This document shows positions 4,987 through 21,740 of a stretch of 48,784 bases of DNA, piece by piece. Both the position numbers and the translations under genes were made by a program. Source of the DNA: Rickettsiales bacterium (lineage in GTDB: Bacteria > Pseudomonadota > Alphaproteobacteria > Micavibrionales > GCA-2720935); assembly GCA_002720935.1 (NCBI GenBank), contig PBIV01000054.1, positions 1 through 48,784 on the forward strand, read 5' to 3'. Each line of letters opens with the position of its first letter. The stretch's first letter is position 1. The notes under the pieces are model-generated. The model made no database searches, was not told where the DNA came from, and saw only the letters and a program-made list of their open reading frames with translations.

Positions 4987-6945
4987 TTAATTTAACTTTT
5001 TTTTTAATAACTTAGTTCTTTCGCTAGGCATAAATAATACTCTATTAGCCAACAAGCCTTCAGGATACTTATGTATTCCGGTTGTTAAGATAACTTGACA
5101 TTTTTTATCTTTAATCTTTTCAAACTCTTCAAGGCATTTAATAAGATTTTGATGTTCTATTCCATTAGCTTGTGGAGTATCTATAAGGAGAAAGCGAGGG
5201 AATGGAATATTTGTGTTATCTATAGATAGTTTCAAGAGGGTTAAAAAGTACATCAGTCTAACCTGTACATTTGCGCTATGCTCTCTATATTCTCCCTCAT
5301 TGATTTGTGGCATGTAATCATCAATGCTTATTCTAGCATGACTACAGCTTTGTAAAGTATTTTTCATTAGCAGGTTATATATAGTATTAAAGTCTTTGAT
5401 CTTAGACTTTATATCATCCTGTGCTTGCAGCTCTTTCTTAATTTTTTCACTCTCTAAGTCTGTAACTTTACATTTGGCATTGCTGTATTTTTCTTGATAG
5501 CTTTCATATTTGCTTTCTATCTCAAGAATATTATGTAGATCAGCTATTTCTTGGCGGACTTTTAGAATTTCATCATCTATGTCATTTATTGTTTCTAAAT
5601 CAATTGTTTCATCTATTCTAAACAAATATTTTTTGAGGTTTTCTTTATAAATTGTACTTGTTTCTTTTAATGAAATGATTTTGTTTTGTGTTTTAAGTAT
5701 TTCGGAATTACAATCATTGATAGCGATTTGCACAGTTTTGTAACTTTTGATTTTTGATTTTAAAATATCGTTATATTCCTCTTGAGTGTAAAAAAATCTT
5801 TCATACCTTTCTTCCTCGATCTTGCTTCCACAAACACAATGATTTTTCGGGCGTTCAACTTTTGTTAGACAATAAGGGCAAGTGTCTGGCGTAAATAGCC
5901 CTAATTGATTATGTGTAAAAATCACTTTCATTATTTGTTCAATAGAAGCGATTGTTTCTTCTTCAATTTCTTTGATTTTTTTTCTTTCCGAATAAAGACT
6001 CATAATACGGCTACTCTCATCCGATAGTTCTATTTCAGCGTCGGATAATTTTCTTTTGGCCTCTTGTATGTTTTGCTCTAGATATGAGTCTTTATGCCTA
6101 TTTTGTTTGAAAGTCTTTCTGTGTGAATGTAGTCTTTCTAATTGTTTTTCTAATTCTTCGACCTCTTTTTGCAAAAAGATACTATTCTTTTTTTCTCTTT
6201 CTCCGCGAATTTTTATTGCTAGATTTGAATACTCATCTAATAAACTCTTTGTTAAATTTTTGTTTTTTTCTGCTAATTTTAAGTTAGAAATTGTTTTATA
6301 TAATTCGTTAAATTTCTCACCAATTAGAAGTTCAAAAACGGCTTTTCTTAAGTCTTTTGAGTCGTTTACAAAATTACGCTTTTCGTCGGGCTTTTTGTAT
6401 ATCTCATTCGCGTCCGTTGGTTGGTCATAATACATTAATCTCATTAAATCTGTAAAATTGATCATAAAGCTTCGATAACCACAGTGCACTTCAACAGGTT
6501 CTATTTTAAGTTTTTGCAATATCCAGTCTGAAAAAGTATTTTTGTTGTCAGGGCTACGATTTATGCTTAGAGACAGATCTTTTTCTTCATCAGGTAAAAT
6601 TGTTAGTTCAATTTTTCCGTTATCATTTATTTGCTCAGTAAATGAGCTTACTAAAATATTATTGTTAGCAAAAAAACGCCTTATTAGATAGGGCTCTTCT
6701 GATAGGTAAATGTATAAATCAACATAATTATTTGTGTCTCCCGCAATTTCTTTTTGGTATTCTTCTGAGCCAGAATTAAATTTTTCTACTTTTCCCCCAA
6801 AAGCAAAATAAATTAAATCGCAGAGTGTTGTTTTTCCAGTTCCATTAAAGCCCTCTATTAAAACAATACCGTCTTTTAGAAGTGGCGATTCAAAGAAGTA
6901 ATTATCTCCAGAATATATAATTTTTCTTATTTTTAAATTTTCCAC
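4987..6945 (-). CDS. lmuB: SMC/Rad50-like ABC ATPase with long coiled coil and CxxC zinc hook (Lamassu LmuB-like / ABC-3C ATPase)
   Basis: Walker A GFNGTGKTT (aa 32-40). A heptad-rich region of about 330 aa. CPYC-x10-CVC at aa 356-372. C-terminal Walker B/D-loop RFLLIDTPQANG and H-loop-like ILTTGIH. Confidence 0.75.
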   Translation of the reverse strand: MENLKIRKIIYSGDNYFFESPLLKDGIVLIEGFNGTGKTTLCDLIYFAFGGKVEKFNSGSEEYQKEIAGDTNNYVDLYIYLSEEPYLIRRFFANNNILVSSFTEQINDNGKIELTILPDEEKDLSLSINRSPDNKNTFSDWILQKLKIEPVEVHCGYRSFMINFTDLMRLMYYDQPTDANEIYKKPDEKRNFVNDSKDLRKAVFELLIGEKFNELYKTISNLKLAEKNKNLTKSLLDEYSNLAIKIRGEREKKNSIFLQKEVEELEKQLERLHSHRKTFKQNRHKDSYLEQNIQEAKRKLSDAEIELSDESSRIMSLYSERKKIKEIEEETIASIEQIMKVIFTHNQLGLFTPDTCPYCLTKVERPKNHCVCGSKIEEERYERFFYTQEEYNDILKSKIKSYKTVQIAINDCNSEILKTQNKIISLKETSTIYKENLKKYLFRIDETIDLETINDIDDEILKVRQEIADLHNILEIESKYESYQEKYSNAKCKVTDLESEKIKKELQAQDDIKSKIKDFNTIYNLLMKNTLQSCSHARISIDDYMPQINEGEYREHSANVQVRLMYFLTLLKLSIDNTNIPFPRFLLIDTPQANGIEHQNLIKCLEEFEKIKDKKCQVILTTGIHKYPEGLLANRVLFMPSERTKLLKKKLN

Positions 6946-7478: not shown

Positions 7479-8673
7479 AAGATAAAAAACAGCCGTCGAA
7501 TAAATCTAATATTAGGCCTTCAACAGTTATAGAATTTGAGGAACTGTAATTATAGTCCTGTTTTAGTTTTTGAATGTTTGCACAAGAAAGTTGTTCCATT
7601 TCTTTTAGGGCATTATTGATATTCTCATCTTGTGTGAAATCGATTTTTTGTTGTGATAAAAAATCTAAGCATGATTCATAGGTCCTGTATTTTAATGACA
7701 ACATGCTTTTATCATTTTCTTTTTGCTCAGCTCTTGAGGTAACTACTTTTCTAGCGAAGTAACCTAATCTTTTAGTACTAAAATCAGGCTTAACCGAATA
7801 TATTTTTTCTTCTACGTTTCTTTTGTCATTTATCTCGATACTTTCGAGTTCTTGCCAAGTGGGATCGTTTTTTTGTGATGGGCTTTCAGATTCTACTCTA
7901 ATGAAAATTGACTTAATTTCGGATGAGTGTAATAGTTTGTTTACAAATCCTTCTTTATTTTGCTTTTGCTCAAGATTCTCCATTATTTGGCTAAATATTA
8001 GTTCCTCTTTATTGTGGTGATTGCATGTGAAAAATTTAGAGTTTCTAATTTTTTCTAATACACGCTCTTTTAAATTTTCTTCATTTTGTTCGCCAAACTT
8101 CCAAGAAATGCAACTCAAAAAGTTCTGAAAAGATTCTAAGCTCATTTCCTCTAGGTCTGAAAGGAAACCCGTTGTTTTTTTGCTTTTATATTGTTTTTTA
8201 TACTCATCAATAAGGCATTTTTTTATAATTATCAGTATCTCATCATTTACTTTTTTGTCTCTTGTCAATATTTCAAGGATAGGTTCGTCGGGCAGGTCTG
8301 GATATTCTGTTCTTTTATTTTCTTTCGCCACTCCCGCAGTTGTATAAAAACAAAAATTAGTAGCATTATAATCTTGTTGACATTGCCCTAAATAAATATC
8401 GAAAAACGCTACAAGCGTGTTTTTAACTTGTCTTGAAAAAAGAGAAAAATTCACCCGATCGTTGTAATTTTTGTTTTCTTCATAGTGATTACACTTTTCT
8501 GATGTTAGATTGTCCTGTTGAAAAGTATCTTCAAACATTTCAACGCCTGTATAAAAACAATGCTCATCTTTAATCGATAATTTATCAAAAATTAGATCTA
8601 CAGCTCTTATTCTCTGAAGACGAAATCCTTTTGTTTTATCTGAAGCTTCTCGATTGATATATTCCATTTCCAA
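7453..8673 (-). CDS. lmuA: effector with an N-terminal Cap4/DUF4297-type PD-(D/E)xK nuclease domain (LmuA-like)
   Basis: The N-terminus reads KGFRLQRIRAVDLIF ... GVEMFEDT ... YEENKNY. This matches the GFxYQ ... E-x-x-D ... E/Q-x-K layout of DUF4297 nucleases. It is the first gene of the three-gene operon. Confidence 0.6.
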   Translation of the reverse strand: MEMEYINREASDKTKGFRLQRIRAVDLIFDKLSIKDEHCFYTGVEMFEDTFQQDNLTSEKCNHYEENKNYNDRVNFSLFSRQVKNTLVAFFDIYLGQCQQDYNATNFCFYTTAGVAKENKRTEYPDLPDEPILEILTRDKKVNDEILIIIKKCLIDEYKKQYKSKKTTGFLSDLEEMSLESFQNFLSCISWKFGEQNEENLKERVLEKIRNSKFFTCNHHNKEELIFSQIMENLEQKQNKEGFVNKLLHSSEIKSIFIRVESESPSQKNDPTWQELESIEINDKRNVEEKIYSVKPDFSTKRLGYFARKVVTSRAEQKENDKSMLSLKYRTYESCLDFLSQQKIDFTQDENINNALKEMEQLSCANIQKLKQDYNYSSSNSITVEGLILDLFDGCFLSFDEDQNDI

Positions 8674-9326
8674 CTAATCTTAATGCTCATTCTTATTATC
8701 TAAATTTTTTTAAAGTATCATATATGGATATTTAAATAGAGAAAAATATTTAATCTAATGTTTTGTAATATACTTGTTGAATGTATTTAAAGATATAGAT
8801 TTTAAAAAGTACTTTTCCCAACTCTGTTCTAAGCGAATCTTACTGTCTTCTAAATGTATGTCAAAATTAATAAATATTTCTTCACTTTAACCATTTTTTA
8901 AACTAAAACCTGGGAAAACCTGAAATTGCTTAACTTTTACTAAGTTTAGTTGTCTTCTTTTGACATTCAATAATATGCATTTAAATAAGATAAAGTTTTG
9001 CTTTCAAATATTTACTTTTCTGATTTGCAAATTTTATGTTTTTGAGGTGCGGTAAAACCAGTACCAAATAGAATTTGGTCAGTATATAAGCCCAATCTTC
9101 TTTCCATCATACCAAGGTAAATCAATTTAAATGTTCGGATTTGCCAATAAGTTAATATTTTTTGCAGTCCTATAATGTCTTTTTTATATATTCAAACATT
9201 AACTAATTAGAATTCAAATTCAAAGTAAGAGATTTTTTTAATGCTTAATAACTTATTGAAATTGAAGTGTATTATTTGATATTTTTTTAAGTAACTCAGA
9301 GTAGCTTTATAAGTAAGTGGTATTTT

Positions 9327-9341
9327 ATGAGTTTGTTTATT
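9327..9341. repeat. 15-bp direct repeat ATGAGTTTGTTTATT, copy 1
   Basis: Identical to 10217-10231. It overlaps the stop codon of the 207-aa gene. Confidence 0.6.
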
Positions 9342-9960
9342 TGCCCTTAGTTTCTTGATTTAGTTTTTCCAGCCTTTGTTCTATTTTGTATATAAGATCA
9401 TTATATGTGAGCCGAAATTCATTTTCTTTAAATTTCCATTCTGCGTTGAGAGACAAATCTTTTTTCGCTAGTTCTACTAAGGTTTTACTTTGTTCTGCAC
9501 TTTTTTTCTGAAGTTCCTTCTTCTTTGCAATTAATAGATGCTTATTATCACAGTGTTCTAGAATAAAACTAAGTTCCCTTGTCATTATTTGGTAGCAGTC
9601 ATGGAGAACGTGCAATGATGACCATTGTGAAATATATTTTAGTAGGCATAAACCTGTAAAAAGTGAAAATAATGATGCTATAAATATACTAAAGTAACTA
9701 TGATAACCATTATTTGATACTCCACCCCATTCGTATGGCAGAATAGACAGTATTCCTAAGCCGCCATGATAAAAGACTATTAACAACGTTAATGAGGCAA
9801 TTATAGTTACTAATCTGTTTGGCAAAGACATTAAACTAGTACTTCTAAGTCTATAAAATAAATTATCATTTGGAGAAAAGCGTAACAAGCCAGCTATAAA
9901 TGATAGACTTAAAAGCATACATAATGCCAACATCAAAATTAACGTTTTTATAATAATCAT
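9337..9960 (-). CDS. membrane protein of unknown function: about four N-terminal TM helices plus a charged C-terminal coiled coil
   Basis: Hydrophobic segments IIIKTLILMLALCMLLSLSFIAGLL, LVTIIASLTLLIVFYHGGLGILSIL and YFSIFIASLFSLFTGLCLL. The C-terminus reads KKKELQKKSAEQSKTLVELAKKDLSL...IEQRLEKLNQ. RBS GGGAGAAG lies 6 nt before the ATG. Confidence 0.7.
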   Translation of the reverse strand: MIIIKTLILMLALCMLLSLSFIAGLLRFSPNDNLFYRLRSTSLMSLPNRLVTIIASLTLLIVFYHGGLGILSILPYEWGGVSNNGYHSYFSIFIASLFSLFTGLCLLKYISQWSSLHVLHDCYQIMTRELSFILEHCDNKHLLIAKKKELQKKSAEQSKTLVELAKKDLSLNAEWKFKENEFRLTYNDLIYKIEQRLEKLNQETKGK

Positions 9961-10215
9961 AAATTCTTCTCCCTAAACAAAATCACCAGAAGCTACGTCT
10001 CTTCTGGTGACCGGGAGTTGATAAATCGCCAATAGTCGATCGCGAGGGCCTTTAGGCATAAGCCCTGAACATACGCCAACGCCTCCCGGACATAAGCCGA
10101 GAAGCGATACGTTTCGGACGCATCAATCCGCTATTGGTAAGGGTTATCAAGCCCCAGCCTTCTCAATAGAGAATAGCTATAAAGAGTTTTACAATAATAG
10201 GAGTAAATAGCAAGC
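9961..10215 (-). ncRNA. GC-rich structured leader or ncRNA of unknown family
   Basis: No ORF. By hand count about 55% G+C over 10011-10130, against about 30% in the adjacent coding DNA. Helices: 10011-10017/10083-10089 (7 bp); 10103-10112/10118-10132 (10 bp with a 5-nt bulge, one pair being G-U only on the minus strand); and the terminator hairpin. Confidence 0.45.
9975..10010 (-). terminator. intrinsic terminator or attenuator hairpin immediately upstream of the membrane-protein RBS
   Basis: A perfect 10-bp stem pairs 9983-9992 with 10001-10010 around an 8-nt loop. On the minus strand it is followed by UUUUGUUU (9975-9982), then GGGAGAAG and the ATG. Confidence 0.65.
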
Positions 10216-10216
10216 G

Positions 10217-10231
10217 ATGAGTTTGTTTATT
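10217..10231. repeat. 15-bp direct repeat ATGAGTTTGTTTATT, copy 2
   Basis: Identical to 9327-9341. It overlaps the stop codon of the 262-aa gene. Confidence 0.6.
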
Positions 10232-11018
10232 AGCTTTTTTTATCTCTATTAAACTGGCTAATACGGCAAGAGTCAGAGCAAAAACGTTTTCCTTTTCTGT
10301 ATGTATAATATTTGTTGCATTTAATATTCTGACATACATCCAATTTAATTCCGCGAGCGTTTGATTCCACTAATGTGGCTATTAGAGCGCTCTTTAAGTC
10401 TGCGGCCTCGAAAACAAGGGTGCGTAGATCTTTGTTAAAATGCATAGAAGTACCAATACGGAAACATGAATGTTTGGCGAGAATAGCTAGAAGTACTCTA
10501 GTCTTTTCCTGCTTAATAATGTTACTGCGCTCAACTGCATTATCTTTGTAATCTATAATCCGATTAGCGAGAGTTATAATGGGTGTTATTGCGTGGATCT
10601 CATTATCTTTAGGGAATTCTTTGTTTTTTATTTCTTCTAATGGGCCGTATTTTTTAACAAACTTAAGAATACCTTGTTCGTGCTTCTGATAGCCTTCATC
10701 TATTGGGATTCTAAGGAACTCAGATAAAATATTCATCCGCTCTGAAAAGGGTTTCTCAAAGAAATCATATGTTTCAGTGCAATCCTTATTCTTTTTATTG
10801 CTGGGCTTAAAAACTATTTTTGCGTAAGGGTAGTAATCAATCTCATCGAAGTTATTGATTTTGCTACATCCATTATAGTCTATGTCTAGCAAATACTTTT
10901 TTTGATCAGGGGTGGCTTTTTGCCCGCGTTCAATTTTTAAATGCCCTATAAAACGATTTGCAGTAAAGCGTATCGTATTTTCTTTATCAAATATTTTATA
11001 TAACTCTGAATAGCTCAT
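10230..11018 (-). CDS. hypothetical protein with a C-terminal CGNR-like Cys4 zinc ribbon
   Basis: 262 aa. The C-terminus LDVCQNIKCNKYYTYRKGKRFCSDSCRISQFNRDKK has C-x4-C ... C-x3-C plus a basic tail, as in zf-CGNR domains. I do not recognise the N-terminal 220 aa. Confidence 0.6.
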   Translation of the reverse strand: MSYSELYKIFDKENTIRFTANRFIGHLKIERGQKATPDQKKYLLDIDYNGCSKINNFDEIDYYPYAKIVFKPSNKKNKDCTETYDFFEKPFSERMNILSEFLRIPIDEGYQKHEQGILKFVKKYGPLEEIKNKEFPKDNEIHAITPIITLANRIIDYKDNAVERSNIIKQEKTRVLLAILAKHSCFRIGTSMHFNKDLRTLVFEAADLKSALIATLVESNARGIKLDVCQNIKCNKYYTYRKGKRFCSDSCRISQFNRDKKS

Positions 11019-11152
11019 ATTACTTAAGTCTTAGCATAATATTAACGGAAATTATACTTTTATATGAATTTAAGCGTTAATAAATTTGTGTTTATATCAT
11101 TACATCCAAACGGAAGTAATAACATTTAGATGAACTTTGAAGGAGGTTTGTA

Positions 11153-11335
11153 ATGAAAAATAGAATTTTAAGATTAAAAGAGGTTATGGATTTGGTGGGG
11201 TTATCAAGAAGTACTATTTATTTGAAAATGAAATTAGGTGAGTTTCCAAAATCCATTGAAATAAGTCAGCGATGCATTGGTTGGACCCAGAGCAGTATTG
11301 AAGAATGGATTGAAGATAAAATTAAGAAATCCTAG
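11153..11335 (+). CDS. alpA: AlpA-family phage/island transcriptional regulator (excisionase-like HTH)
   Basis: 60 aa. LRLKEVMDLVGLSRSTIYLKMKLGEFPKSIEISQRCIGWTQSSIEEWI is the canonical AlpA/Phage_AlpA pattern. Confidence 0.9.
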   Translation: MKNRILRLKEVMDLVGLSRSTIYLKMKLGEFPKSIEISQRCIGWTQSSIEEWIEDKIKKS

Positions 11336-11357
11336 GAAGTTATAGGATATTTTTAAG

Positions 11358-11927
11358 ATGGATTCAGCTAAAGAAATATATGGGGCTGTTGCTTTACAGA
11401 AATTATGTAGATTAGTAGCCATGGACACAAGGATTAAGCCGGCTGCAAAGCGCGTTTTTTTGACGATGTTAAGTTATGCCAATATTAAGACACTATCTTG
11501 TTATCCTGTTCAGCAAACCATTGGAGATGATTATGGGATTAGCAGGCAAGCTGTTGGGCAGGCCATAAAGCAGTTAGTGAGAAATGGCTACATTATTAAA
11601 AAAACGTCTATTTCTAAAACTGGAACAGACAACACATATTATTTTAATATATATCTAGTTCAAGTATGTGGTTTGTGGAACTACAAGGTGAAAGCTCCAG
11701 AGCTTGCGACGGTATGCAATCTTAAAGACTTTACAGGGTGGAAACTTCCAAGTGTTTCAGGGGGTGCAAGCTCTAAAGGTTTCACTAAAAATAAAAGTTA
11801 TAATAAAAAAAATAAAACAGATCTCTTAAAAGATAAAAATGTTTTGCTTGGCAAGGAGGAGAAGGTTGATGTTTCTGTGCCCAAAGATCAAAACTCAGAC
11901 AAATATTATAGTATGTGGGGGGGGTAA
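11358..11927 (+). CDS. winged-helix DNA-binding protein typical of islands and satellites (HTH_36-like); probably the 5' part of a gene split at a G8 run
   Basis: AAKRVFLTMLSYANIKTLSCYPVQQTIGDDYGISRQAVGQAIKQLVRNGYIIKK. The ORF ends just after GGGGGGGG (11917-11924). Confidence 0.65.
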   Translation: MDSAKEIYGAVALQKLCRLVAMDTRIKPAAKRVFLTMLSYANIKTLSCYPVQQTIGDDYGISRQAVGQAIKQLVRNGYIIKKTSISKTGTDNTYYFNIYLVQVCGLWNYKVKAPELATVCNLKDFTGWKLPSVSGGASSKGFTKNKSYNKKNKTDLLKDKNVLLGKEEKVDVSVPKDQNSDKYYSMWGG

Positions 11928-12287: not shown

Positions 12288-12872
12288 GTGGGCTTAGAGA
12301 CATTTATTGAACTTAATCGAACTTTTGTAAAGTACTCGCAAGATGATGCTCAAGATGCGTCTGGAGATAGTATAGAGCATAGCGATGCCCTTGGTCTTAA
12401 AGTAATTGATGATTTAAGCTGGGATGATTTGTTTGAGAAGCGCCGTGTAGTAATATTAGCCCCGGCAGGTGCAGGTAAAACCTCAGAAATTCGTAAAGCC
12501 GCTATCAAACTGAGATCAAAAGGAAAGTCAGCTTTTTTTTTAAGGATAGAGCATTTATCGGATAATTTAGATGGTGCATTTGAGGAAGGTGATGTATCGG
12601 AATTTGAAGAGTGGTTAAAAGGTAATGATGAGGGTTGGATTTTCTTAGACTCTATCGATGAGGCTAGATTGAAATCCCCCTATTGTTTTGAAGAAGCTGT
12701 TAGGAAAATTGCAACTACGCTGAAGCCTAAAAAACAAAGCGTTCATATTATAATGACTAGTCGTATCGAAGCTTGGAGACGTAAAACAGATTTGGATTTA
12801 TGCAACAAACAATTTGAATATATTTTACCACAAGAAAAAATCGCTCAAATTGGAGATAGAACAATTTCATAG
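12288..12872 (+). CDS. STAND/NACHT-like P-loop NTPase, N-terminal part, ending at an in-frame TAG
   Basis: Walker A VVILAPAGAGKTSE and Walker B GWIFLDSIDEARL. The TAG at 12870-12872 is in the same frame as the next ORF. Confidence 0.75.
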   Translation: MGLETFIELNRTFVKYSQDDAQDASGDSIEHSDALGLKVIDDLSWDDLFEKRRVVILAPAGAGKTSEIRKAAIKLRSKGKSAFFLRIEHLSDNLDGAFEEGDVSEFEEWLKGNDEGWIFLDSIDEARLKSPYCFEEAVRKIATTLKPKKQSVHIIMTSRIEAWRRKTDLDLCNKQFEYILPQEKIAQIGDRTIS

Positions 12873-13025
12873 GATTCTATTGTCTATGATCGCAATCAAA
12901 CAAAAGAAGAAACACAAAATAAAGACATAAAAGGTACATTTGAGATATATTTTATCCGTGATTTAAATGAGAGCCAAATTGAAACCTTTGCTCGGAAACG
13001 AGTTGAGTCCAATGTTTCTGGTTTC

Positions 13026-16000
13026 TTGAACGATATAAATAGACAAGATACAGGAGTTCATACCGCTAGACCTCAGGGCTTAATCGATCTTATATGGTAT
13101 TGGGAAAAGTATGGATGTATAGGATCTCCGCTTGAGCTTATGAGGAAAAGCGTTGAAAGAAGATTGGTAGAACGTCGTCCAAATACTGAAATTGTAAGTA
13201 ATATTTCAAAAAATAAAGTTCGAGAAGGGCTTAAGCTTATAGCCGCAGCTTGTACTTTAATGAAAGAGGCTGTAATTGCCATACCTGATGAAGATAATAA
13301 TGTGGGTATTGATATTAGAAAGCTTTTATCTAACTGGAAACCAGATGAATGTAATACTGTTTTAGGGCGTCCTATATTTGGCGGTGCAATTTATGGTGCA
13401 GTACGATTGGATAGGCCAACAAGAGATTTTTTGACAGCGGAGTGGCTCAATGACTGTTTAAAACGAGGCGCACCTAGAAAGGATATAGAAAATTTATTTT
13501 TTCAAAAAACTTATGGTGTTAAAGTTTTAGTACCCTCGATGAGATCAGTCTTGTCTTGGCTAATGATATTCGATGAAGAAATTAGAGCGAAAGCATGTAA
13601 AATAGAACCAGAAATTATATTTGATAGTGGAGACCCAACTCAGTTTCCACTAGAGGTAAGGAGCAAAATACTTAAGAGTATATGTCGTAAAATTAGTTTA
13701 GATGCATCTCAGCGCTCAGTCACTGATTACGCTTCAATAGAGAGGTTTACGAGTCCGGATATGTCGAAAGACGTAAAAGTACTTTTAAAAAAATATAAAA
13801 ACAATACGGAGATCGTTTCCTTTTTAATGCGAATGATTTGGCGGGGAAAAATAATAGAAGCTTTGCCAGAGACAAAAATTTTAGCTCTAGATAGTCAAAA
13901 TGAGAAATATGCGAGAGTTTTGGCTATTAAGGCATTAAAAGAAATAGGCTCTAAAGAGGATTTTAAAGAGTTATTAGATTGCTTGAAGAATCAAGATAAA
14001 AAAATTGATAGAAGAATTTTAGCAGGTGTAATTGATGTTTTGGAGCCTACACAAAATTCGATAGATTGGGTTTTTGATGCTTTAGCCAAAGTTAAAGAGA
14101 AGGAAAAGTATACTACCGAAGGTCTGACCTATTCTTTAGTAAGTTTTGTAGAGCGGCTTGATTTAAAACTGATGCATGGTTTTATAAATAGATGCTGTTT
14201 ACTCTTAGATAAAAAACCTTTTATTCAAAAAAGAGGTTGTGAGGTTTCAAAACGTTTTGGTTGGTTAATAAACTGTGCAGGCAAAGCTATAGAAAGATTG
14301 TTACTGGTTCGTCATAAAGATGCTTTGATGCCTGAAAGTCTTGATATAATTTATAAAATTTCATCATTTACGAAATATGAATATTTTCAGATCAGATCAT
14401 TAACTAAAAAACTTCCAGAAATAGCGGATGATTGGTCTGATTTGAACTTTGCATTGTTTTGGAAAGATGTGGAAGAAACGAGGAAGAATTTTTCCAATGA
14501 CTTAGATGATAGAATAACAGATTTTTCTAGAGTCTATGGTCTTCGAGAATATTGGAATTTTGGTTTGGAAGATTTTGAGAATATTAAGAACGAGATAATC
14601 AATCGAAGTTTTTTGGATGATAAGCTTGTAGCTCTTACATTAGCTTTTCAAATATATGTTGAGAATAATAGGCCTAACAAATTGAAGGAGGAACTTAACG
14701 AAATTGTTTTTGGAGTATCTGAGTTGGAAGAACTTTTGTCAACTATGCTTAAACCGCCTCCGCAATCGAACCAACAAAAGAAATTTAAAAAAGAAGAACA
14801 AAGATGGCAACTAGAAAATAAGAAGCGTGAAGATGATCTAAATAAATATCACGCTGATTGGTTAATTTGGCTAAAAGAAAATGTGGAGTTACTTAAAGAT
14901 GAGAATCGAATTTCTGTTACTCTTAGTAATGGTGGTGTTTTAGGTGCTCATAAATATCTCCTGGAGAGAATGCGTCATTATAGTGCTGATAATATGAAAT
15001 GGACGCAAGGAAATTGGGAAGATTTGAAAGGTGTTTATGGTGTTGATATTGCTACAGCTTTTCGTGATGGACTCGTAATGTCATGGAGACACTATAAGCC
15101 AGATTTTCCTTCTGAAAGGAATTGCCACGATAGAATTCCTCTAGCTGTAATTGTGGGGCTTTCGGGTCTGGAAATTGATTCTAAAGAAAATAAAAATTGG
15201 GCAAACGGTCTTAGTGAAGGCGATGTTGAGCTAGCTTGTCGTTATGCTTTTTATGAATTAAATGGATTTCCAGCATGGTTTGCTCGACTTCATAAAGTTT
15301 TTCCAGATTTAGTTAATGATTATATTATGAAAGAGATAGATTGGGAGCTAGGACTTGTTCAGGAAGGAAAAGAGAAACACTATCTTATTGATAAGTTGAG
15401 CTGGGGTAATGAAAATTTATGGGATAGTTGTGCCCCCCTTATTCTTGAGCGCCTTGAGAAAGAGCCTGCTAGTGTAAAAAAATTAGGTTATTTATTAAAA
15501 ATAATACAATGGTCTAGAACTATTTCGGATAGAGAGATAGCTTCTTTGGCATCAAAGAAATGTGATGAAATTGAAAATTTGGATCATCTTTCATATTGGT
15601 TTGCTACATGGATTGGAGTAGAGCCGGAAAAAGCAATTCAAAGATTTTCAGAATATTTAAAGAAAGTAAAAAAAGACAAAACCTCTTTAAGTTTAGCCAT
15701 GAGGGTAATTGTTAATTTGGTAGGAGATGAGTTCACAGATTTTCGTGCTCGAACAGCTTATCGTCAACCTAAGTATCTAAAGCTTTTGTACCTTCTAATG
15801 CATAAATATATTAAAGTTGAGGAAGATATAGATAGAATAGGGAAAGGTGCATACTCACCTCAATTAAGAGATAATGCACAAAATGCTAGAGAAAGTCTTT
15901 TTAATGTTTTGACCAATATTCAAGGAAAAGAATCTTATATTGCGTTGGTTGAGTTGGCAAAAAAACATCCTGTAAAAAAGCATCGTCCTTGGATGATGCG

Positions 16001-16382
16001 CGCAGCGAGGAAATGTGCTGAAAAAGACACAGATATTAAGGTTTGGAATTATGCAAATATACATAGACTTATTGATAGTTTTAAAGAGAAAGTGAGTTAT
16101 CAAATGAACTTCTGGGAAAAAATTTTAGGTTTTGGTTTTGGGGTTACATTTATAGTTGTTTTGTTAGTTATAGCGCTTTTTATTACTGACCCTACTGAAA
16201 CACAACATGCAACATTTAAAACTATCTTGGCATTATCTGCGGCAGGAATTGGCGGCATCTTTACTGGCTTTATTCATGTAGAAGGAAAAATTAACGAGTT
16301 TACTATCAGAGCTGGTGGCGCGTTAGCATTATTTGTGATTGTTTACTTTTTTCCTCCAGAAGCAATATCATTTATGAGATAA
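13026..16382 (+). CDS. STAND/NACHT-like NTPase, C-terminal part: helical-repeat body plus three C-terminal TM helices
   Basis: It shares the frame of 12288-12872, and the 51 codons between them (12873-13025) contain no stop. C-terminal hydrophobic helices: ILGFGFGVTFIVVLLVIALFI, ILALSAAGIGGIFTGFI, GGALALFVIVYFF. Confidence 0.75.
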   Translation: MNDINRQDTGVHTARPQGLIDLIWYWEKYGCIGSPLELMRKSVERRLVERRPNTEIVSNISKNKVREGLKLIAAACTLMKEAVIAIPDEDNNVGIDIRKLLSNWKPDECNTVLGRPIFGGAIYGAVRLDRPTRDFLTAEWLNDCLKRGAPRKDIENLFFQKTYGVKVLVPSMRSVLSWLMIFDEEIRAKACKIEPEIIFDSGDPTQFPLEVRSKILKSICRKISLDASQRSVTDYASIERFTSPDMSKDVKVLLKKYKNNTEIVSFLMRMIWRGKIIEALPETKILALDSQNEKYARVLAIKALKEIGSKEDFKELLDCLKNQDKKIDRRILAGVIDVLEPTQNSIDWVFDALAKVKEKEKYTTEGLTYSLVSFVERLDLKLMHGFINRCCLLLDKKPFIQKRGCEVSKRFGWLINCAGKAIERLLLVRHKDALMPESLDIIYKISSFTKYEYFQIRSLTKKLPEIADDWSDLNFALFWKDVEETRKNFSNDLDDRITDFSRVYGLREYWNFGLEDFENIKNEIINRSFLDDKLVALTLAFQIYVENNRPNKLKEELNEIVFGVSELEELLSTMLKPPPQSNQQKKFKKEEQRWQLENKKREDDLNKYHADWLIWLKENVELLKDENRISVTLSNGGVLGAHKYLLERMRHYSADNMKWTQGNWEDLKGVYGVDIATAFRDGLVMSWRHYKPDFPSERNCHDRIPLAVIVGLSGLEIDSKENKNWANGLSEGDVELACRYAFYELNGFPAWFARLHKVFPDLVNDYIMKEIDWELGLVQEGKEKHYLIDKLSWGNENLWDSCAPLILERLEKEPASVKKLGYLLKIIQWSRTISDREIASLASKKCDEIENLDHLSYWFATWIGVEPEKAIQRFSEYLKKVKKDKTSLSLAMRVIVNLVGDEFTDFRARTAYRQPKYLKLLYLLMHKYIKVEEDIDRIGKGAYSPQLRDNAQNARESLFNVLTNIQGKESYIALVELAKKHPVKKHRPWMMRAARKCAEKDTDIKVWNYANIHRLIDSFKEKVSYQMNFWEKILGFGFGVTFIVVLLVIALFITDPTETQHATFKTILALSAAGIGGIFTGFIHVEGKINEFTIRAGGALALFVIVYFFPPEAISFMR

Positions 16383-16432: not shown

Positions 16433-17617
16433 TTAGGCTTTTATGTTTTTAATATAATCTGCCCAGTCTTGCATCATTTTAGTTCGCTCTTGTAAAAAGT
16501 CTGCACGGTCATAGGCTCGGTCTATCTTATTTTTTGGTAAATGGGCGAGTTGACGGTCAATAACCTCATGGCGATAGCCCAATTCTTGTTTTATTGCCCC
16601 CATAGCAAGTGCTCTGAAGCCGTGGCCTGTCATTTTTCCTTGGTAGCCCATCAGTTTTAGCGCTTTAAGGATAGTGTTGTTACTAATTGAATTTTTTGGG
16701 CGAATAGGGCTCGCGAAGACATGTTCACGATTGCCTGAGATCAGTTGTTGTTTTTCAAATATTGATAAGGCCATATCAGATAGGGGGACAAGATGTTCTT
16801 TTTTCATCTTCATGCGCTCGGCAGGGATGGTCCAAAGCTTTTTGTCAAAGTCTATCTCTTCCCACTTCGCATTGATAAGTTCACTCGTCCTAACAAAGGT
16901 CAAGAGCATCAACCACATTGCGTTTTGTGTCGTGCCATAAAGGCGTGCGTCATTTGTTTGTAGCTTATGCAAGAATTCGGGCAGTTCTTCGACTTTAATC
17001 GATGCAAAATGGCCTGATTTAGAAGGTTTGAGGGCTTCTCTAATGTCTCTTGATGGATCTCTAACGCCTCGACCTGTTGCGATAGCGTAGCGAAAGATTT
17101 CGCCGCATTTTTGTAATTGACGTTTAGCGAGGTCAAATGCACCACGTTTTTCGATCTTGCGAATAACTTCTAATAGGGCAGGCGGTTCAATATCTTTGAT
17201 AGGCATTTTACCGATATAAGGAAAGATATCATCCTTGAGACGATCTAAGATTTGTCCAGCGTATCGATCTGACCAGCCGGTAAGTTTGTTTTCATGCCAC
17301 TCTAAAGCGATTGCTTCAAAGGTGTTCTCCAAATTATCGGCGGTGGCGAGCTTTTGTTCTCTTTTATGGCTTACGGGATCGATGTTATCGGCAATAAGGC
17401 GTTTGGCTTTAACTTTCTCTTCACGTGCTTCTAGGAGAGAAACAATAGGATAGGTACCGATTGTTAAAAGCTTTTCTTTGCCTAAAAAGCGATATTTTAA
17501 GCGCCATGATTTAACACCGGTCTTTTTTACAAGTAGGAATAAACCCTCTCCATCGAAGAGTTTATAATCTTTTTCTTTGGGCTTGGCGCTCTTAACTTGG
17601 ATGGCTGAAAGTTTCAT
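16433..17617 (-). CDS. int: P4/CP4-57-type tyrosine integrase
   Basis: N-terminal DUF4102-type arm-binding region LSAIQVKSAKPKEKDYKLFDGEGLFLLVKKTGVKSWRLKYRF. Catalytic region with HGFRA, LAHL and the tyrosine context RAYDRADF. Confidence 0.92.
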   Translation of the reverse strand: MKLSAIQVKSAKPKEKDYKLFDGEGLFLLVKKTGVKSWRLKYRFLGKEKLLTIGTYPIVSLLEAREEKVKAKRLIADNIDPVSHKREQKLATADNLENTFEAIALEWHENKLTGWSDRYAGQILDRLKDDIFPYIGKMPIKDIEPPALLEVIRKIEKRGAFDLAKRQLQKCGEIFRYAIATGRGVRDPSRDIREALKPSKSGHFASIKVEELPEFLHKLQTNDARLYGTTQNAMWLMLLTFVRTSELINAKWEEIDFDKKLWTIPAERMKMKKEHLVPLSDMALSIFEKQQLISGNREHVFASPIRPKNSISNNTILKALKLMGYQGKMTGHGFRALAMGAIKQELGYRHEVIDRQLAHLPKNKIDRAYDRADFLQERTKMMQDWADYIKNIKA

Positions 17618-17809: not shown

Positions 17810-18490
17810 TTAAACACGCCTTAAACCATTCACTAATAAGACCTTGCCAAGGATATCAAAATCAACGCCATCATCCATTTTGATGGTAAACGGTTCATAT
17901 ATGTTGTTATCACTAGATACTTTTATTGTTTTACCAGGTAGAAATTGCAATCGTTTAACCATTACTGCCTCTTCTAACCTTATTACAAAGACGCCATCGG
18001 CGGGAACTCTGTGCTGCACGTCGTAACTGCAAATAAGTATTTCCCCATGATTTAGGGTTGGCGCCATTGATTCTCCATCAACTTCCATACAGAACAAATG
18101 AGACGAGCTGATAAACCAAGTTTTTTGTAGATATTCTTTGTGGAATGCTAATAAAGAGGTGGATTTTTCTTCAGTAACAAGCTTTCCATCGCCAGCGCTG
18201 GCTTTCACATTAATTAATGGGACATGGACGAGGTGTTGAGGCTGATGCTTTTCTTTTTCCTCTATTTTCTCTATCTCGTCAATTATATCTGTTTTATCTT
18301 CCTCTCCAGCTGCTAGCCAGCCAATGCTAACATCGGTTGCTTTTGCAATTTGTTGTAACTTATTTAAGCCAGGAGTAGAGCCCTTTAAATAATTTCTTAT
18401 TAAAGATTCTGAGAGTCCGCATTTTTTAGCGAATGAATTTACTGATTCTTCTCCAATGAGGTGGGTCAATCTTTCTTTAAAGTCTTCCAT
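17810..18490 (-). CDS. phage repressor: XRE HTH plus S24 LexA-like peptidase domain
   Basis: N-terminus SVNSFAKKCGLSESLIRNYLKG. C-terminus GESMAPTLNHGEILIC and AVMVKRL (Ser/Lys dyad context). It is divergent from ner. Confidence 0.9.
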   Translation of the reverse strand: MEDFKERLTHLIGEESVNSFAKKCGLSESLIRNYLKGSTPGLNKLQQIAKATDVSIGWLAAGEEDKTDIIDEIEKIEEKEKHQPQHLVHVPLINVKASAGDGKLVTEEKSTSLLAFHKEYLQKTWFISSSHLFCMEVDGESMAPTLNHGEILICSYDVQHRVPADGVFVIRLEEAVMVKRLQFLPGKTIKVSSDNNIYEPFTIKMDDGVDFDILGKVLLVNGLRRV

Positions 18491-19020: not shown

Positions 19021-19558
19021 AAAGAATAAAGGTTCTGATAACCGTCAATTACCTCTCAATTTAGATATGCACTTTTATATAAATAGTGAGCCTGTTAGGG
19101 CAAATGTTGAGGGCGGTTCAAATGAGATTTTAAGCGATTTTGAAATGCGTTTAAGAAAATCTATTAAAGACGTTCTAGACAAATGTTCAAAGCGTGAAAT
19201 AGACCCTCTTGATCGTATTGATGTAGCCGCTCGAATGACGAGAATTCTTGGCCGCGATATAACAAAAACACACATAGACCAATGGAGCGCATTAAGTGCA
19301 ATTACGAGACGAATACACGCAGATTCATTAAAGGCATTGTGCGAAGTAACGAATGATTACGCTCCTTTGCACGTATTTGTTGAATCTTGCGGCTTTAAAG
19401 CATTGCATCCAGAAGAAGCAAAAGCGGCTGAATACGGCTCTAAAATGCTGCTAAAACGCATCATTGACATAGATATAAAAGAGATACTTGTTGATCTTGA
19501 TGAAGATGAATTAAAGCAACAGCTCTTAAAAAGAATTATGGGAGGCTCCCATGATTAA
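19013..19558 (+). CDS. hypothetical early protein
   Basis: ORF coupled by 8-nt overlaps to both ner and the transposase gene. No motif recognised. Confidence 0.6.
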   Translation: MAKKNKGSDNRQLPLNLDMHFYINSEPVRANVEGGSNEILSDFEMRLRKSIKDVLDKCSKREIDPLDRIDVAARMTRILGRDITKTHIDQWSALSAITRRIHADSLKALCEVTNDYAPLHVFVESCGFKALHPEEAKAAEYGSKMLLKRIIDIDIKEILVDLDEDELKQQLLKRIMGGSHD

Positions 19559-21740
19559 AGAATGGTTCACGGCAAGAGAAATAGCTGAGCTGAAACTCAC
19601 ATCAACACCGAAATCAATAATGGGTGTATCCAAAAAGGCTAAAAGAGAAAATTGGAAAAAAAGAGAACGCCTAGAATCTGGTGGGGGATTTGAGTTTCAT
19701 ATATCTAATTTACCAGACAAAGCTCAAATGGAGATATTTGAAAAGCTTGTTGGTAAGCCAGAATTAAATGCTGCTCCAAAATATGAGCCAGCTCAAGAAA
19801 AGAAAACGGTTACAGCGGATCAAAGAAAAAATGCTCGGCTGATTATTGTCTCTTTATTTAACCAATTTATTACAAAAACAGGATTAGGTGTTTTAGCAGC
19901 TGAAAACCCATTTCTTAAGCTTTATGAGCAAGAGGGAAGTGACAAGAATTCTGATGTGGTTCCAAATTGGGTTTATGATATTTATCCATCTTTTTCAATT
20001 CAATCATTAAGAGGGTGGCGATCTAGGGCAAAGTCAGGAAATTTGAAAGCGCTAGGCGATAAGTATGGCAATAGAAAAGGTAAAGGTGTCTTAGATCGCG
20101 CAGAAAATGGAGAAGTTGCAAATTATATTAAGGCTCTGATTACTCATAATAGGCATTTAAAAGCTGGTCATATTAGAGATTTAATCCGCTCAAAATTTGG
20201 AAAAAGTTTAACTGTTTATAACAGTAAAAAAGACACAAAAGAGGATAAGCCTCTCCCCAATATTAGAACTTTTGAACGCTTTATTGCTACTTTTAAAGAA
20301 GATAATGAAGACGTTATGCTTAAAATGACTGATCCTGATAGGTATAAAAGTCATTATCAGATGGCTGTTGGTAAAGCTGATGAGGGCATTATAAGACTTA
20401 ATCAGGTTTGGGAAATTGATGCCTCGCCAGCTGATGTTCTATGTACGGATGGTCGATATAATCTTTATGCAATAATCGATATTTATTCAAGACGTTCAAT
20501 ATTCTTAGTGACGAGAACACCAAGAACAGATGCGGCTTTATCTTTAATAAGAAAAGCGATCTTAGAATGGGGTGTTCCAGATACTATAAAAACAGATAAC
20601 GGTGCTGATTTTATTTCATATCAATTTAAAACAGCCTTGATGGGGTTGGGTATTGAGCAAAATATATGTTCACCATTCTCTCCAGAGAAAAAACCGTATG
20701 TTGAACGTGTTATTGGAACATTACATCGCGATTTAGCCCCCTTATTGCCAGGATTTATTGGGCATAGTGTGGCGGATAGAAAGAAAATTGAAGCTAAAAA
20801 GGCTTTCTCAGCTCGTTTGGGCGAGAAAGATGACAAGGCGTTTTCTGTAGGTTTAACAGCCGAGGAACTTCAAATCAATATTGATAGATGGGCATCAACC
20901 AAATATGAACGACGTGTTCACTCTTCTTTGGGAGTTAGCCCTTTTGAAAAGGCTAACAACTGGAAAGGTGCGATAAAAACCATTCCAAATGAGCGCGCCT
21001 TAGATCTTCTTTTAGCACCTATTGCAAATGGTAAAGGATACCGAAAAGTCACAAAAGAGGGAATTAGAGTCGAGCGCGGTAATTTTGCTGCGCCTGAGTT
21101 GGCTTTATATGTCGGTAAGACCGTATTTGTTAGGCATGATCCTGCTGACATGGGTAAAATATATGTTTTCGACCAAGAAGAAAATTATATTTGCACCGCC
21201 AAGGATGTCGAAAGACTTGGGCTTGATCGTAAAGAGTTGGCTAAAAAGGCTAAGGCAGCTCAAAAAGAATTCATTGCTGGTCGCACAAAGGAAATTAAAA
21301 AGGCAGCAAGAAGCTTTAAACCTGAAGATTTTGTCAATGCTTATCTTTCTGAAGCAGAGCAGAACGCTAAGGATATTATAGCGTTTCCCAAACCATCCGC
21401 AGATCACATCTCTCACGGTTTATTACAGGTAGAAAAAGCCTTATTAAAACCGCTTCCACCACAAAAAAATGAAATGAATAACAGACAACAAGAACTCCAT
21501 GAGGAGTTGCTTAAAGATTTGTCTCAAAAGAATAACCAAAAGCCAATAAGCGCAGAAACAAGAGAAACTCGTTTTGAGCGAGCTATGAATCTTGAGAAGC
21601 GTTTAGACGATGGCGTTCGCGTCACACAAAAAGACCATGATTGGCTGCTTGGTTATAAACAAACTCCCGAATATCGCTCACAGAAAGCGATGCGGGAGGA
21701 TTTCGGAGCTAACTGGTTTGAAGAAGGAGGTAAATTATAA
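19551..21740 (+). CDS. MuA-like DDE transposase
   Basis: 729 aa. N-terminal HTH WFTAREIAEL. DDE core VWEIDASPADV, IKTDNGADFIS, KKPYVERVIG. Long C-terminal domain. Confidence 0.92.
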   Translation: MIKEWFTAREIAELKLTSTPKSIMGVSKKAKRENWKKRERLESGGGFEFHISNLPDKAQMEIFEKLVGKPELNAAPKYEPAQEKKTVTADQRKNARLIIVSLFNQFITKTGLGVLAAENPFLKLYEQEGSDKNSDVVPNWVYDIYPSFSIQSLRGWRSRAKSGNLKALGDKYGNRKGKGVLDRAENGEVANYIKALITHNRHLKAGHIRDLIRSKFGKSLTVYNSKKDTKEDKPLPNIRTFERFIATFKEDNEDVMLKMTDPDRYKSHYQMAVGKADEGIIRLNQVWEIDASPADVLCTDGRYNLYAIIDIYSRRSIFLVTRTPRTDAALSLIRKAILEWGVPDTIKTDNGADFISYQFKTALMGLGIEQNICSPFSPEKKPYVERVIGTLHRDLAPLLPGFIGHSVADRKKIEAKKAFSARLGEKDDKAFSVGLTAEELQINIDRWASTKYERRVHSSLGVSPFEKANNWKGAIKTIPNERALDLLLAPIANGKGYRKVTKEGIRVERGNFAAPELALYVGKTVFVRHDPADMGKIYVFDQEENYICTAKDVERLGLDRKELAKKAKAAQKEFIAGRTKEIKKAARSFKPEDFVNAYLSEAEQNAKDIIAFPKPSADHISHGLLQVEKALLKPLPPQKNEMNNRQQELHEELLKDLSQKNNQKPISAETRETRFERAMNLEKRLDDGVRVTQKDHDWLLGYKQTPEYRSQKAMREDFGANWFEEGGKL

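Follow-up and report, generated by a model that had tools for sequence, protein, structure and literature searches.

A candidate extended variant of sRNA-Xcc1 with two covariation-supported folds precedes variable cargo genes in mobile islands

Three elements between a Lamassu-like operon and alpA

The stretch of DNA analysed here, hereafter the window, comprises 48,784 nucleotides (nt) of contig PBIV01000054.1 from a Rickettsiales bacterium. Between a Lamassu-like operon and the gene alpA, its minus strand carries three elements: an open reading frame (ORF) for a soluble protein of 262 amino acids (aa), ORF262, a non-coding spacer, and an ORF for a membrane protein of 207 aa, ORF207. An earlier reading of the letters alone (the sequence-only reading) had described these elements and joined them into one module of defence or toxin-antitoxin (TA) type, and all three are present where it placed them. 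The comparative evidence presented below suggests that the spacer encodes an RNA of the sRNA-Xcc1 kind, itself little understood, in a new and extended variant; this variant is widespread, shows covariation support for two folds and stands ahead of variable island cargo. The features of the segment, in the order in which they are met along the minus strand, are the following.

11153..11335, plus strand: alpA (Phage_AlpA/HTH_17), the conserved divergent partner of ORF262, marking the island backbone
11051..11080, minus strand: sigma-70-like promoter TTAACG-18-TATAAT (10/12), upstream of ORF262, a consensus match only
10230..11018, minus strand: ORF262, soluble, with a C-terminal Cys4 (CGNR/FCS-like) zinc ribbon, a putative regulator
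10217..10231, minus strand: direct repeat copy 1, AATAAACAAACTCAT, overlapping the ORF262 stop codon
10160..10173, minus strand: P0 hairpin UUCUC-UAUU-GAGAA (UUCUCUAUUGAGAA), immediately 5' of the RNA core
10001..10159, minus strand: structured RNA core, a full-length match to the family profile, with P1-P2-P3 around a junction of P4, P5 and P6/P7
10001..10091, minus strand: RNA 3' domain, an end-to-end sub-threshold alignment to sRNA-Xcc1 (RF02221), with its own fold of PX, P8 and P6/P7
9975..10012, minus strand: intrinsic terminator, with stem (GG)UCACCAGAAG / CUUCUGGUGA(UU), an 8-nt loop and the U tract AUUUUGUUU
9969..9973, minus strand: Shine-Dalgarno sequence GGGAG, 8 nt before the ORF207 ATG, complementary to the conserved CUCCC of P1/PX
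9337..9960, minus strand: ORF207, an orphan with three to four transmembrane (TM) segments, in the hypervariable cargo slot
9327..9341, minus strand: direct repeat copy 2, AATAAACAAACTCAT, overlapping the ORF207 stop codon

ORF262 contains no hydrophobic segments and ends in the pattern CQNIKC-x12-CSDSC followed by a basic tail. Its promoter candidate lies in the 134-bp divergent intergenic region that it has in common with alpA. ORF207 has three hydrophobic stretches (residues 1-30, 43-75 and 88-111), and its C-terminus consists of two long, charged helices. It had been described as a protein of about four TM helices with a charged coiled-coil tail; the count is better given as three to four, and the tail was found to be long, helical and charged. 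Its ribosome-binding site and ATG do come directly after the terminator, the GGGAG being followed after 8 nt by the ATG, which itself starts about 15 nt past the end of the U tract.

The spacer occupies positions 9961..10229 and, at 269 nt, is somewhat longer than the roughly 250 nt first given; its description as GC-rich, structured and ended by a terminator holds. Its GC content is 45% overall and 53% in the core (9985..10160); the flanking ORFs have 30-34%, and the core is the sole GC peak of such kind in the window, the prophage aside. Folded as minus-strand RNA, the spacer reaches -78.5 kcal/mol (z -4.75), a value that none of 200 shuffled sequences equalled, versus -60.7 kcal/mol (z -2.9) for the plus strand. 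The structure is thus strand-specific and depends on G-U pairs of the sense strand. The terminator-like hairpin and its U tract (10012..9981 on the minus strand) are the only such element within positions 9000-11400.

The spacer RNA belongs to a widespread family

The lead to the RNA family came from locus L016 (loci in other genomes and contigs are given L numbers), where a sequence with clear homology to the 5' 125 nt of the spacer lies downstream of an ORF262 homologue. A pattern scan with the shared core CCGGGAGGCGNNGGCGTATG, in one genome per species, yielded at least 119 loci. About half of the scan matches listed were chance matches in high-GC coding DNA and were filtered out; among the matches listed there are 64 homologues of the whole RNA, which is about 165 nt long. 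An nhmmer profile built without the window recovers its RNA on the minus strand at 10159..10001 (model positions 4-163 of about 165, 112 bits, E value 1.5e-32) and finds this one copy in the window. Conservation of the spacer had been singled out as a point to check, and the spacer is indeed a member of a widespread, covarying RNA family. Its hosts are mainly Micavibrio and other Alphaproteobacteria, along with Verrucomicrobia, Bdellovibrionota and a Legionellales metagenome-assembled genome (MAG). Verrucomicrobial carriers are Brevifollis, Prosthecobacter and a Chthoniobacteraceae genome (CP170506) with at least five intact, full-length copies plus split, partial, tandem or 3'-domain-only ones (among them L051 and L063). 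The two split copies of CP170506 (L038, 3082-4579; L129, 5621-7118) are interrupted at the 3' strand of helix P6, described below, by an insertion of about 1.3 kb, and next to the split RNA of L038 there is a group II intron domain (RF00029, 55.7 bits).

At gathering thresholds, Rfam has no match in the window. A relaxed Rfam scan of the window gave one weak match, to sRNA-Xcc1 (25.3 bits, E value 0.029 in a 401-nt search; gathering threshold 53 bits). Sub-threshold matches to the same model were found in relatives of the RNA, in 8/8 of those tested first and in 4/6 of those tested later, with scores of 28.7-40.1 bits. Altogether there are 14 end-to-end matches (model positions 1-87) at 13 loci, namely the window and 12 relatives, one of which has two copies. 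Neither the window nor any tested relative reaches 53 bits, and no Rfam family other than sRNA-Xcc1 appears at the site of the 3' domain. Copies with the 3' domain alone also occur (L051, L063, L119, L124, L096 and L115). These sequence comparisons indicate that the RNA is an extended, distant relative of sRNA-Xcc1 that Rfam does not capture.

Searches with blastn, using the window RNA and two relatives as queries, gave no match in phages or Escherichia coli genomes; the sole plasmid match, over 37 nt, was due to chance (E value 0.8). A match in L005, from a 17-mer scan of viral contigs, was rejected as a chance occurrence in a high-GC phage gene, and pattern scans of viral contigs for canonical Xcc1 returned either nothing or members of the extended family only. 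The isrK (RF01394) and C4 (RF01695) models of Rfam do not match the window; L063 alone among the relatives has a weak isrK match (positions 5806-5891, 23.5 bits versus a gathering threshold of 50, E value 0.51) in the 5' half of the RNA, directly upstream of the Xcc1-like half. From this comes a hint that isrK/C4-like and Xcc1-like domains may have been fused to give the family.

Four short contigs from different assemblies (L003, L004, L010 and L011) end inside the RNA, within the part that corresponds to window positions 10035-10073. An explanation by a repeat or strain junction was rejected on account of low or unstated coverage (about 1.6-2.5x where stated), scattered ends and identical copies, and the ends probably reflect a drop in coverage at a GC-rich hairpin in an AT-rich genome.

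Two mutually exclusive folds

The helices of the ground-state fold (state A) were derived from column-pair statistics and explicit counting on an unfitted MAFFT alignment. RNAalifold, applied to the MAFFT alignment, returned only the Xcc1-like fold and missed P1-P3; these were recovered by the column-pair statistics and tested separately. State A comprises eight helices: a long closing element P1-P2-P3(-P3b), the junction hairpins P4 and P5, and P6, which encloses P7. Over its 49 pairs, 94.8% of alignment cells are paired, compared with 82.7% in shuffled alignments and 34-47% in slid controls. The number of compensatory cells is 351 (shuffled, 89; slid controls, 26-49), and the covariation score is 0.415 (shuffled, 0.18; slid controls, 0.09 or less). 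Up to 4-6 pair types occur in P2, P3, P4 and P7. In the window, the minimum free energy (MFE) structure forms P1 (GCUGGGG/CUCCCGG), P2 (UUGAUAA/UUAUCAA) and P3 (CCAAUAG/CUAUUGG). A P2 strand (10141-10151) is repeated exactly over 11 nt, GGGTTATCAAG, in the coding region of alpA (11198-11208), probably by chance.

State B is the Xcc1 fold of the 3' domain alone. Its helix P8 is 97.5% paired, with compensatory changes at 5/6 pairs; helix PX is 99% paired, a value that has to be read with the composition of the search pattern in mind (see below). The 3' strand of P3 serves as the loop of P8 and no linker lies between them; on geometric grounds, therefore, the two states cannot coexist. State A is the MFE structure in 50/60 members and lies on average 9.5 kcal/mol below state B. 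Conserved loops of the RNA are GUAUGUYCA and UAAAGG, and GUAUGUCCA, ACCCC and CGG are likewise conserved and unpaired.

A conserved order of RNA, terminator and reading frame

In relatives of the window RNA, a hairpin of variable sequence, equivalent to P0, is commonly seen before P1. Among 37 loci with a good promoter match, the -10 element of a promoter-like sigma-70 sequence ends 15-30 nt upstream of P1 in 21. A terminator hairpin with a U tract follows the core in most family members, its pairs being formed in 81-96%, and the first bases of the terminator (GYC family-wide, GGUC in the window) are common to the 3' strand of P1/PX. The distance from the core window to the start of the next ORF is 17-57 nt in about 60 of the 64 listed loci. 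GGGAG precedes the start of this ORF in 21/64 listed loci, versus about 3% of background ORFs. The sequence data thus support the succession of structured RNA, intrinsic terminator and ribosome-binding site with ATG as a conserved architecture, not a local accident of the window. The sequence-only reading had described ORF207 as a gene held behind a terminator-containing RNA, and as a general description of the family this is a fair one.

Hypervariable cargo

The genes that follow the RNA are extremely diverse. BLAST sorts the 62 downstream ORFs of the matches listed into about 52 clusters, of which 45 are singletons and 7 are small clusters. Three encode known defence proteins: a full-length UzuA/Uzume in L060 (E value 9.4e-95), PD-T4-3 in L126 (1.6e-51) and PDC-S11 in L086 (1.4e-96). 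Other cargo domains include HNH, GIY-YIG, a trypsin-like protease, an acyltransferase and TM2. At least one hydrophobic segment is present in 33/62 of the ORFs, and a lipobox-like signal in 14/62. The RNA is therefore not specific to membrane effectors, and the toxin-antitoxin logic that had been attached to it does not extend to the family. As to the defence-island setting, that part of the earlier proposal stands insofar as some RNA-led ORFs are known single-gene defence systems; ORF262 and ORF207 themselves belong to no PADLOC family.

The diversity of the cargo bears on the possibility that the RNA is a riboswitch-like sensor, in which a small molecule or an infection-related signal would stabilise one fold and open or close the terminator or the ribosome-binding site. 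Two mutually exclusive folds, each with covariation support, would suit such a sensor, as would the highly conserved unpaired loops (GUAUGUCCA / UAAAGG, ACCCC, CGG), a terminator that could act as expression platform by sharing bases with P1/PX, and the spread of the family over several phyla. However, known riboswitch regulons have a pathway in common, which the genes downstream of this RNA do not; the overlap of core and terminator is 3-4 nt only, and there is no ligand candidate. Moreover, with state A better by 9.5 kcal/mol on average, a large stabilisation would be needed to reach state B. We therefore regard a riboswitch as quite improbable.

Similar RNAs rarely bring the same neighbours with them. 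Among seven pairs of RNAs at least 90% identical between species, cargo is shared in 1/7 and the 300 nt upstream in 0/7; L086 and L126 have RNAs 94% identical and different defence genes. Upstream genes are not conserved either, and an ORF262 homologue was found upstream in 0/62 other listed RNA loci. A P4-type integrase lies within 8 kb of the RNA at 17/64 listed loci, often together with tRNA genes. A copy of the RNA in L114, a MAG (ERR594337_concoct_183) of an uncultured alphaproteobacterium, is accompanied by a P4-type integrase and has a lipoprotein as cargo; this MAG and several window-identical contigs derive from one Tara Oceans sample.

Unrelated flanks on both sides of highly similar RNAs are also what might be expected of a trans-acting, Hfq-type small RNA (sRNA), as reported for sRNA-Xcc1, that marks the edge of a recombination hot spot and whose adjacency to cargo has no regulatory meaning; ORF207 would then be expressed by incidental read-through or not at all. 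As is typical of sRNAs, the unit has a promoter-like site, a hairpin terminator and a U tail of its own, its 3' domain is similar to Xcc1, for which a discrete RNA of about 88-100 nt was detected (PMC2996969), and copies that are tandem or restricted to the 3' domain occur. On the other hand, the start codon lies only a few tens of nt past the terminator in about 60/64 listed loci, which leaves no room for a separate cargo promoter, and both the roughly ten-fold enrichment of GGGAG and the fixed spacing to unrelated ORFs are hard to explain without co-transcription. We consider adjacency without regulatory meaning rather unlikely. A trans-acting role as such is compatible with the gating of cargo that we favour below, since IsrK does both.

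In the window, the repeat AATAAACAAACTCAT occurs exactly twice (17/18 when extended), in the same reading register at the stop codons of ORF262 and ORF207. The two copies bracket a unit of 890 bp containing the RNA and ORF207, and their flanks are otherwise dissimilar. The acquisition of the 890-bp unit downstream of ORF262 may have had its junction at this repeat. As a family-wide cassette boundary, direct repeats were rejected, being absent at 52 other loci tested.

These repeats could also be read as the insertion scar of a DNA-level recombination site or a small non-autonomous mobile element, similar to attC or to miniature inverted-repeat transposable elements. The exact 15-mer in one register at both stop codons would agree with such an element, as would conservation of the RNA while both flanks vary, the insertion of a group II intron in one copy and the published presence of Xcc1 relatives in integron cassettes. 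Against it stand the many conserved G-U pairs and a fold that is 18 kcal/mol better on one strand, as well as a strongly conserved primary-sequence core, unlike that of attC sites, the low copy number per genome and the lack of flanking repeats at the 52 other loci. An attC site in particular was rejected, because inspection of positions 9975-10165 on both strands revealed no RYYYAAC/GTTRRRY core sites and the fold is strand-specific. A DNA-level element is, in our view, very improbable.

ORF262 belongs to the island backbone

A word-indexed protein search with ORF262 returned the query itself only, and an exhaustive search with phmmer added eight distant homologues, 226-254 aa in length (E values 5.6e-6 to 5.7e-4). 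Their alignment contains a KFAxKYGLLG motif, a helical segment LxxAMWLMLAxELTxG and a ribbon of the form C-x4-C-x12-C-x3-C-x6-R. Residues C229, C234, C247, C251 and R258 of ORF262 are invariant across the nine homologues. Pfam zf-CGNR does not match ORF262 itself, the best Pfam match being zf-FLZ (E value 0.011, 15.6 bits versus a gathering threshold of 23.4); zf-CGNR weakly matches 3/9 family members (E values 0.0088-0.1). In a comparison of the family profile with the Protein Data Bank (PDB), the top entry is 3h0n, a DUF1470 protein of the ABATE/CGNR type (E value 0.11). The label of CGNR-like zinc ribbon, which had been given to the window protein, is therefore carried by weak but consistent evidence at the level of the family, and the signal of the window protein alone is weak. 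A single-sequence AlphaFold model of ORF262 has a pLDDT (predicted local distance difference test) of 33, too low for use.

More informative is the gene neighbourhood. In 5/5 informative loci, ORF262 homologues are divergent from alpA/HTH_17 at a distance of 80-134 bp, and every informative locus has a tyrosine integrase within one or two genes. The integrase is the next gene after the homologue in L012, L013, L015 and L017 (4/5 other loci); in L015, this next gene is an unannotated, convergent partial ORF that abuts the homologue. Four of the loci have the following settings.

L012: ORF262 homologue in a tRNA-Asn island
L013: ORF262 homologue in a tRNA-Thr island
L016: tRNA 3' end, integrase, 186-aa ORF, AlpA divergent from the homologue, in the same order as in the window
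L017: ORF262 homologue in an island with type I restriction-modification cargo

The corresponding partners of ORF262 in the window are alpA, a replication-initiator-like ORF189 (11358..11927) and the integrase (16433..17617, minus strand). Because its homologues consistently adjoin alpA and the integrase, we read ORF262 as a mobile-element backbone gene, in the order integrase, replication initiator, AlpA and, divergently, ORF262. Most likely, it is a zinc-ribbon nucleic-acid-binding regulator paired with alpA.

The sequence-only reading had instead united ORF262, the RNA and ORF207 in a single dedicated defence or TA system, with the zinc-ribbon protein binding the RNA and releasing a toxic membrane effector. 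The three elements run in the same direction and might be transcribed together from the promoter of ORF262, and the region lies in a defence-rich island beside Lamassu. Furthermore, the closest ORF262 homologue, in L016, is followed by the RNA. This is, however, the sole one of the five loci with that combination: neither the RNA nor a membrane gene was found in L012, L013, L015 or L017. That ORF262 homologues generally precede the RNA was likewise rejected by the survey of upstream genes and by the family-profile search. The two proteins do not co-occur, which the sequence-only reading had itself listed among the findings that would refute it; ORF207 has no homologue in a word-indexed search of 5.8 billion proteins. 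PADLOC-DB 2.0 has no family for either ORF, and the RNA is devoid of tandem repeats, unlike type III antitoxins. A dedicated three-part system is thus hardly probable, and the locus joins two unrelated things, the island backbone gene ORF262 and an RNA-led cargo unit.

For ORF207, nothing significant was found in Pfam, NCBIfam, PADLOC or PHROGs; the profile searches proposed earlier have thus yielded a weakly CGNR-like family for ORF262 and no family for ORF207. A single-sequence AlphaFold model of ORF207 (pLDDT 56) is too low in confidence for use. To judge from its sequence and position, ORF207 is an orphan occupant of the cargo slot behind this copy of the RNA. It would be a conditionally expressed accessory or exclusion protein acting on the envelope, with no dedicated link to ORF262.

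Proposed function of the RNA-led unit

The reading that we favour, and hold to be moderately probable, is that the RNA is a portable leader and sRNA unit whose terminator gates variable cargo, with ORF262 being a separate backbone gene. Most transcripts would stop at the terminator and give rise to a stable small RNA, and the cargo, here ORF207, would be made only from read-through transcripts, as follows from the fixed order of promoter, P0, two-state core, terminator, Shine-Dalgarno sequence and ORF. A switch between state A, in which the 5' half is paired with the 3' half, and state B, in which the Xcc1-like 3' domain is folded alone, might tune read-through and perhaps also access to the GGGAG ribosome-binding site. 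Both CUUCUCG (P5) and CUCCC (P1/PX) are complementary to GGGAG, and state B would free CUUCUCG, which could then pair with the ribosome-binding site. The unit would work like the dual short and long isoforms of IsrK and limit the expression of potentially harmful cargo. We propose a combined function as leader and sRNA with moderate confidence. A further-reaching version is that the RNA is a new class of two-state leader, spread by islands across phyla, which senses a general cellular or infection signal or a universal host factor and, by way of its terminator and ribosome-binding site, gates any defence, exclusion or envelope gene placed behind it, sRNA-Xcc1 being its minimal or processed 3' domain; this version is speculative and, on balance, unlikely.

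Several points weigh against the reading of a gating leader. Terminated and read-through isoforms are assumed in it. The short overlap of core and terminator means that neither fold obviously blocks the terminator, and in the window a terminator of 9-10 bp persists under either fold. The best own promoter of the window RNA, TTGCTA-17-AAAACT, is unconvincing, and this copy may be transcribed from the ORF262 promoter or may simply be the 3' untranslated region of ORF262. Because the pattern used for the search (CCGGGAGGCG..GGCGTATG) forces its own columns to be invariant, P5 and PX contribute little evidence of their own, and the family sample leans towards the searched core. The family counts refer to the matches listed only (at least 119, one genome per species), and known defence cargo is established for only 3/62 ORFs. 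The role given to ORF262, for its part, derives from gene position and weak zinc-finger similarity.

Neighbouring genes of the island

The Lamassu-like operon (4987-8673, minus strand) contains a 652-aa ORF (4987..6945) that PADLOC identifies as LmuB (E value 5.6e-59). Its two upstream ORFs, of 406 and 181 aa, match no PADLOC or PHROG family, and the operon may have an effector of a new type. A non-coding gap of 660 nt with 24% GC separates it from ORF207. On the other side, a STAND/AAA-like gene of 1364 aa (12288..16382, plus strand) is split in the window strain by a C-to-T change at 12870, which turns Gln195 from CAA into the stop codon TAA; the gene is intact in contig L001, which is otherwise 99.97% identical. 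A Mu-like transposable prophage (about 17800-48784) abuts the island integrase. It encodes an S24 repressor (17810..18490) and a transposase with HTH_Tnp_Mu_1, rve and Mu-transpos_C domains (19551..21740), followed by a co-directional run of ORFs. This prophage may separate the island integrase from its attachment site; no tRNA genes were found in the window.

Significance

Defence and accessory genes of islands are usually catalogued protein by protein, and little is understood of how mobile elements keep such often-toxic cargo silent and at the same time ready for use. If the RNA does gate cargo, it would be a general regulatory device of mobile islands and a practical flag, in that whatever follows it becomes a candidate defence or exclusion gene. 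Should the two-state leader reading be true, the unit would amount to a portable 'conditional expression socket' for horizontally acquired, potentially toxic cargo. For the window itself, a three-gene system is removed, with ORF262 reassigned to the backbone and ORF207 to the orphan cargo genes.

Comparison with known systems

Among known proteins, ORF262 appears closest to the ABATE/CGNR group (PF07336/PF11706; PDB 3H0N). They appear to have in common the C-terminal Cys4 pattern with a conserved Arg (C-x4-C-x12-CSxxC-x5-R), a basic tail and a preceding helical region, and the match of the family profile to 3h0n spans both the helical region and the ribbon. The differences are that all matches are sub-threshold, that the N-terminal half of ORF262, with KFAxKYGLLG, has no known relative, and that ORF262 has its fixed place beside alpA and an integrase in mobile islands, not in stress regulons.

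Type III TA systems of the ToxIN type share with the RNA-led unit the succession of a structured RNA gene, an intrinsic terminator and a protein gene, as well as the defence context. By contrast, the protein is here no endoribonuclease, ORF207 being a membrane protein, and differs at every locus; a search of the window RNA for the tandem repeats of a type III antitoxin found only one imperfect 13-nt pair, 34 nt apart. Terminator riboswitches and attenuators likewise combine an RNA of several helices, conserved, covarying and open to alternative pairing, with a terminator and an ORF downstream. Unlike these, the present family has downstream genes without a common function, a minimal terminator overlap and no known ligand.

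Closer parallels are found in IsrK and the C4 antisense RNAs (P1/P7), which are island or prophage RNAs with their own promoter and terminator and part read-through into ORFs. In IsrK of Gifsy-1, terminated transcripts form the small RNA, and read-through yields an inactive mRNA that is activated by the short form, with alternative structures being involved (PMC4825925). Alternative structures, a short isoform that controls translation of the long one and the tuning of a toxic product (PMC4825925) are the points of resemblance to the function proposed here. Two differences are that the downstream genes of our family are hypervariable, with no fixed anrP/antQ or icd/ant module, and that the family is known from sequence alone. 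In Xylella, the C4, isrK and Xcc1 genes are adjacent (PMC12189769).

The closest known relative is sRNA-Xcc1 (RF02221), known from Xanthomonas campestris and detected in Xanthomonas as a discrete RNA of 88 nt (PMC2996969). RNAs of its family precede symE in integron cassettes of Xanthomonas (10.1101/2025.06.18.660453) and the gene for an ORF6N protein in an APSE phage (10.1101/2020.03.17.996009). The closing helix GGCCGGGRGG/CYCCCGGYC and the internal hairpin of sRNA-Xcc1 are shared by the 3' 90 nt of our RNA in the window and in 12 relatives. Both are found on horizontally transferred DNA, where they immediately precede a variable ORF, and some genomes have them in tandem (PMC12189769). However, the RNA described here is about twice as long and scores 25-40 bits, below the threshold of 53, and its 5' domain (P0, P1-P5) pairs with the 3' domain in the ground state, replacing the Xcc1 fold. 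Its hosts differ as well, namely Micavibrio, other Alphaproteobacteria, Verrucomicrobia, Bdellovibrionota and a marine AT-rich bacterium. The sRNA-Xcc1 family, obscure so far, thereby gains a wider context and a testable role.

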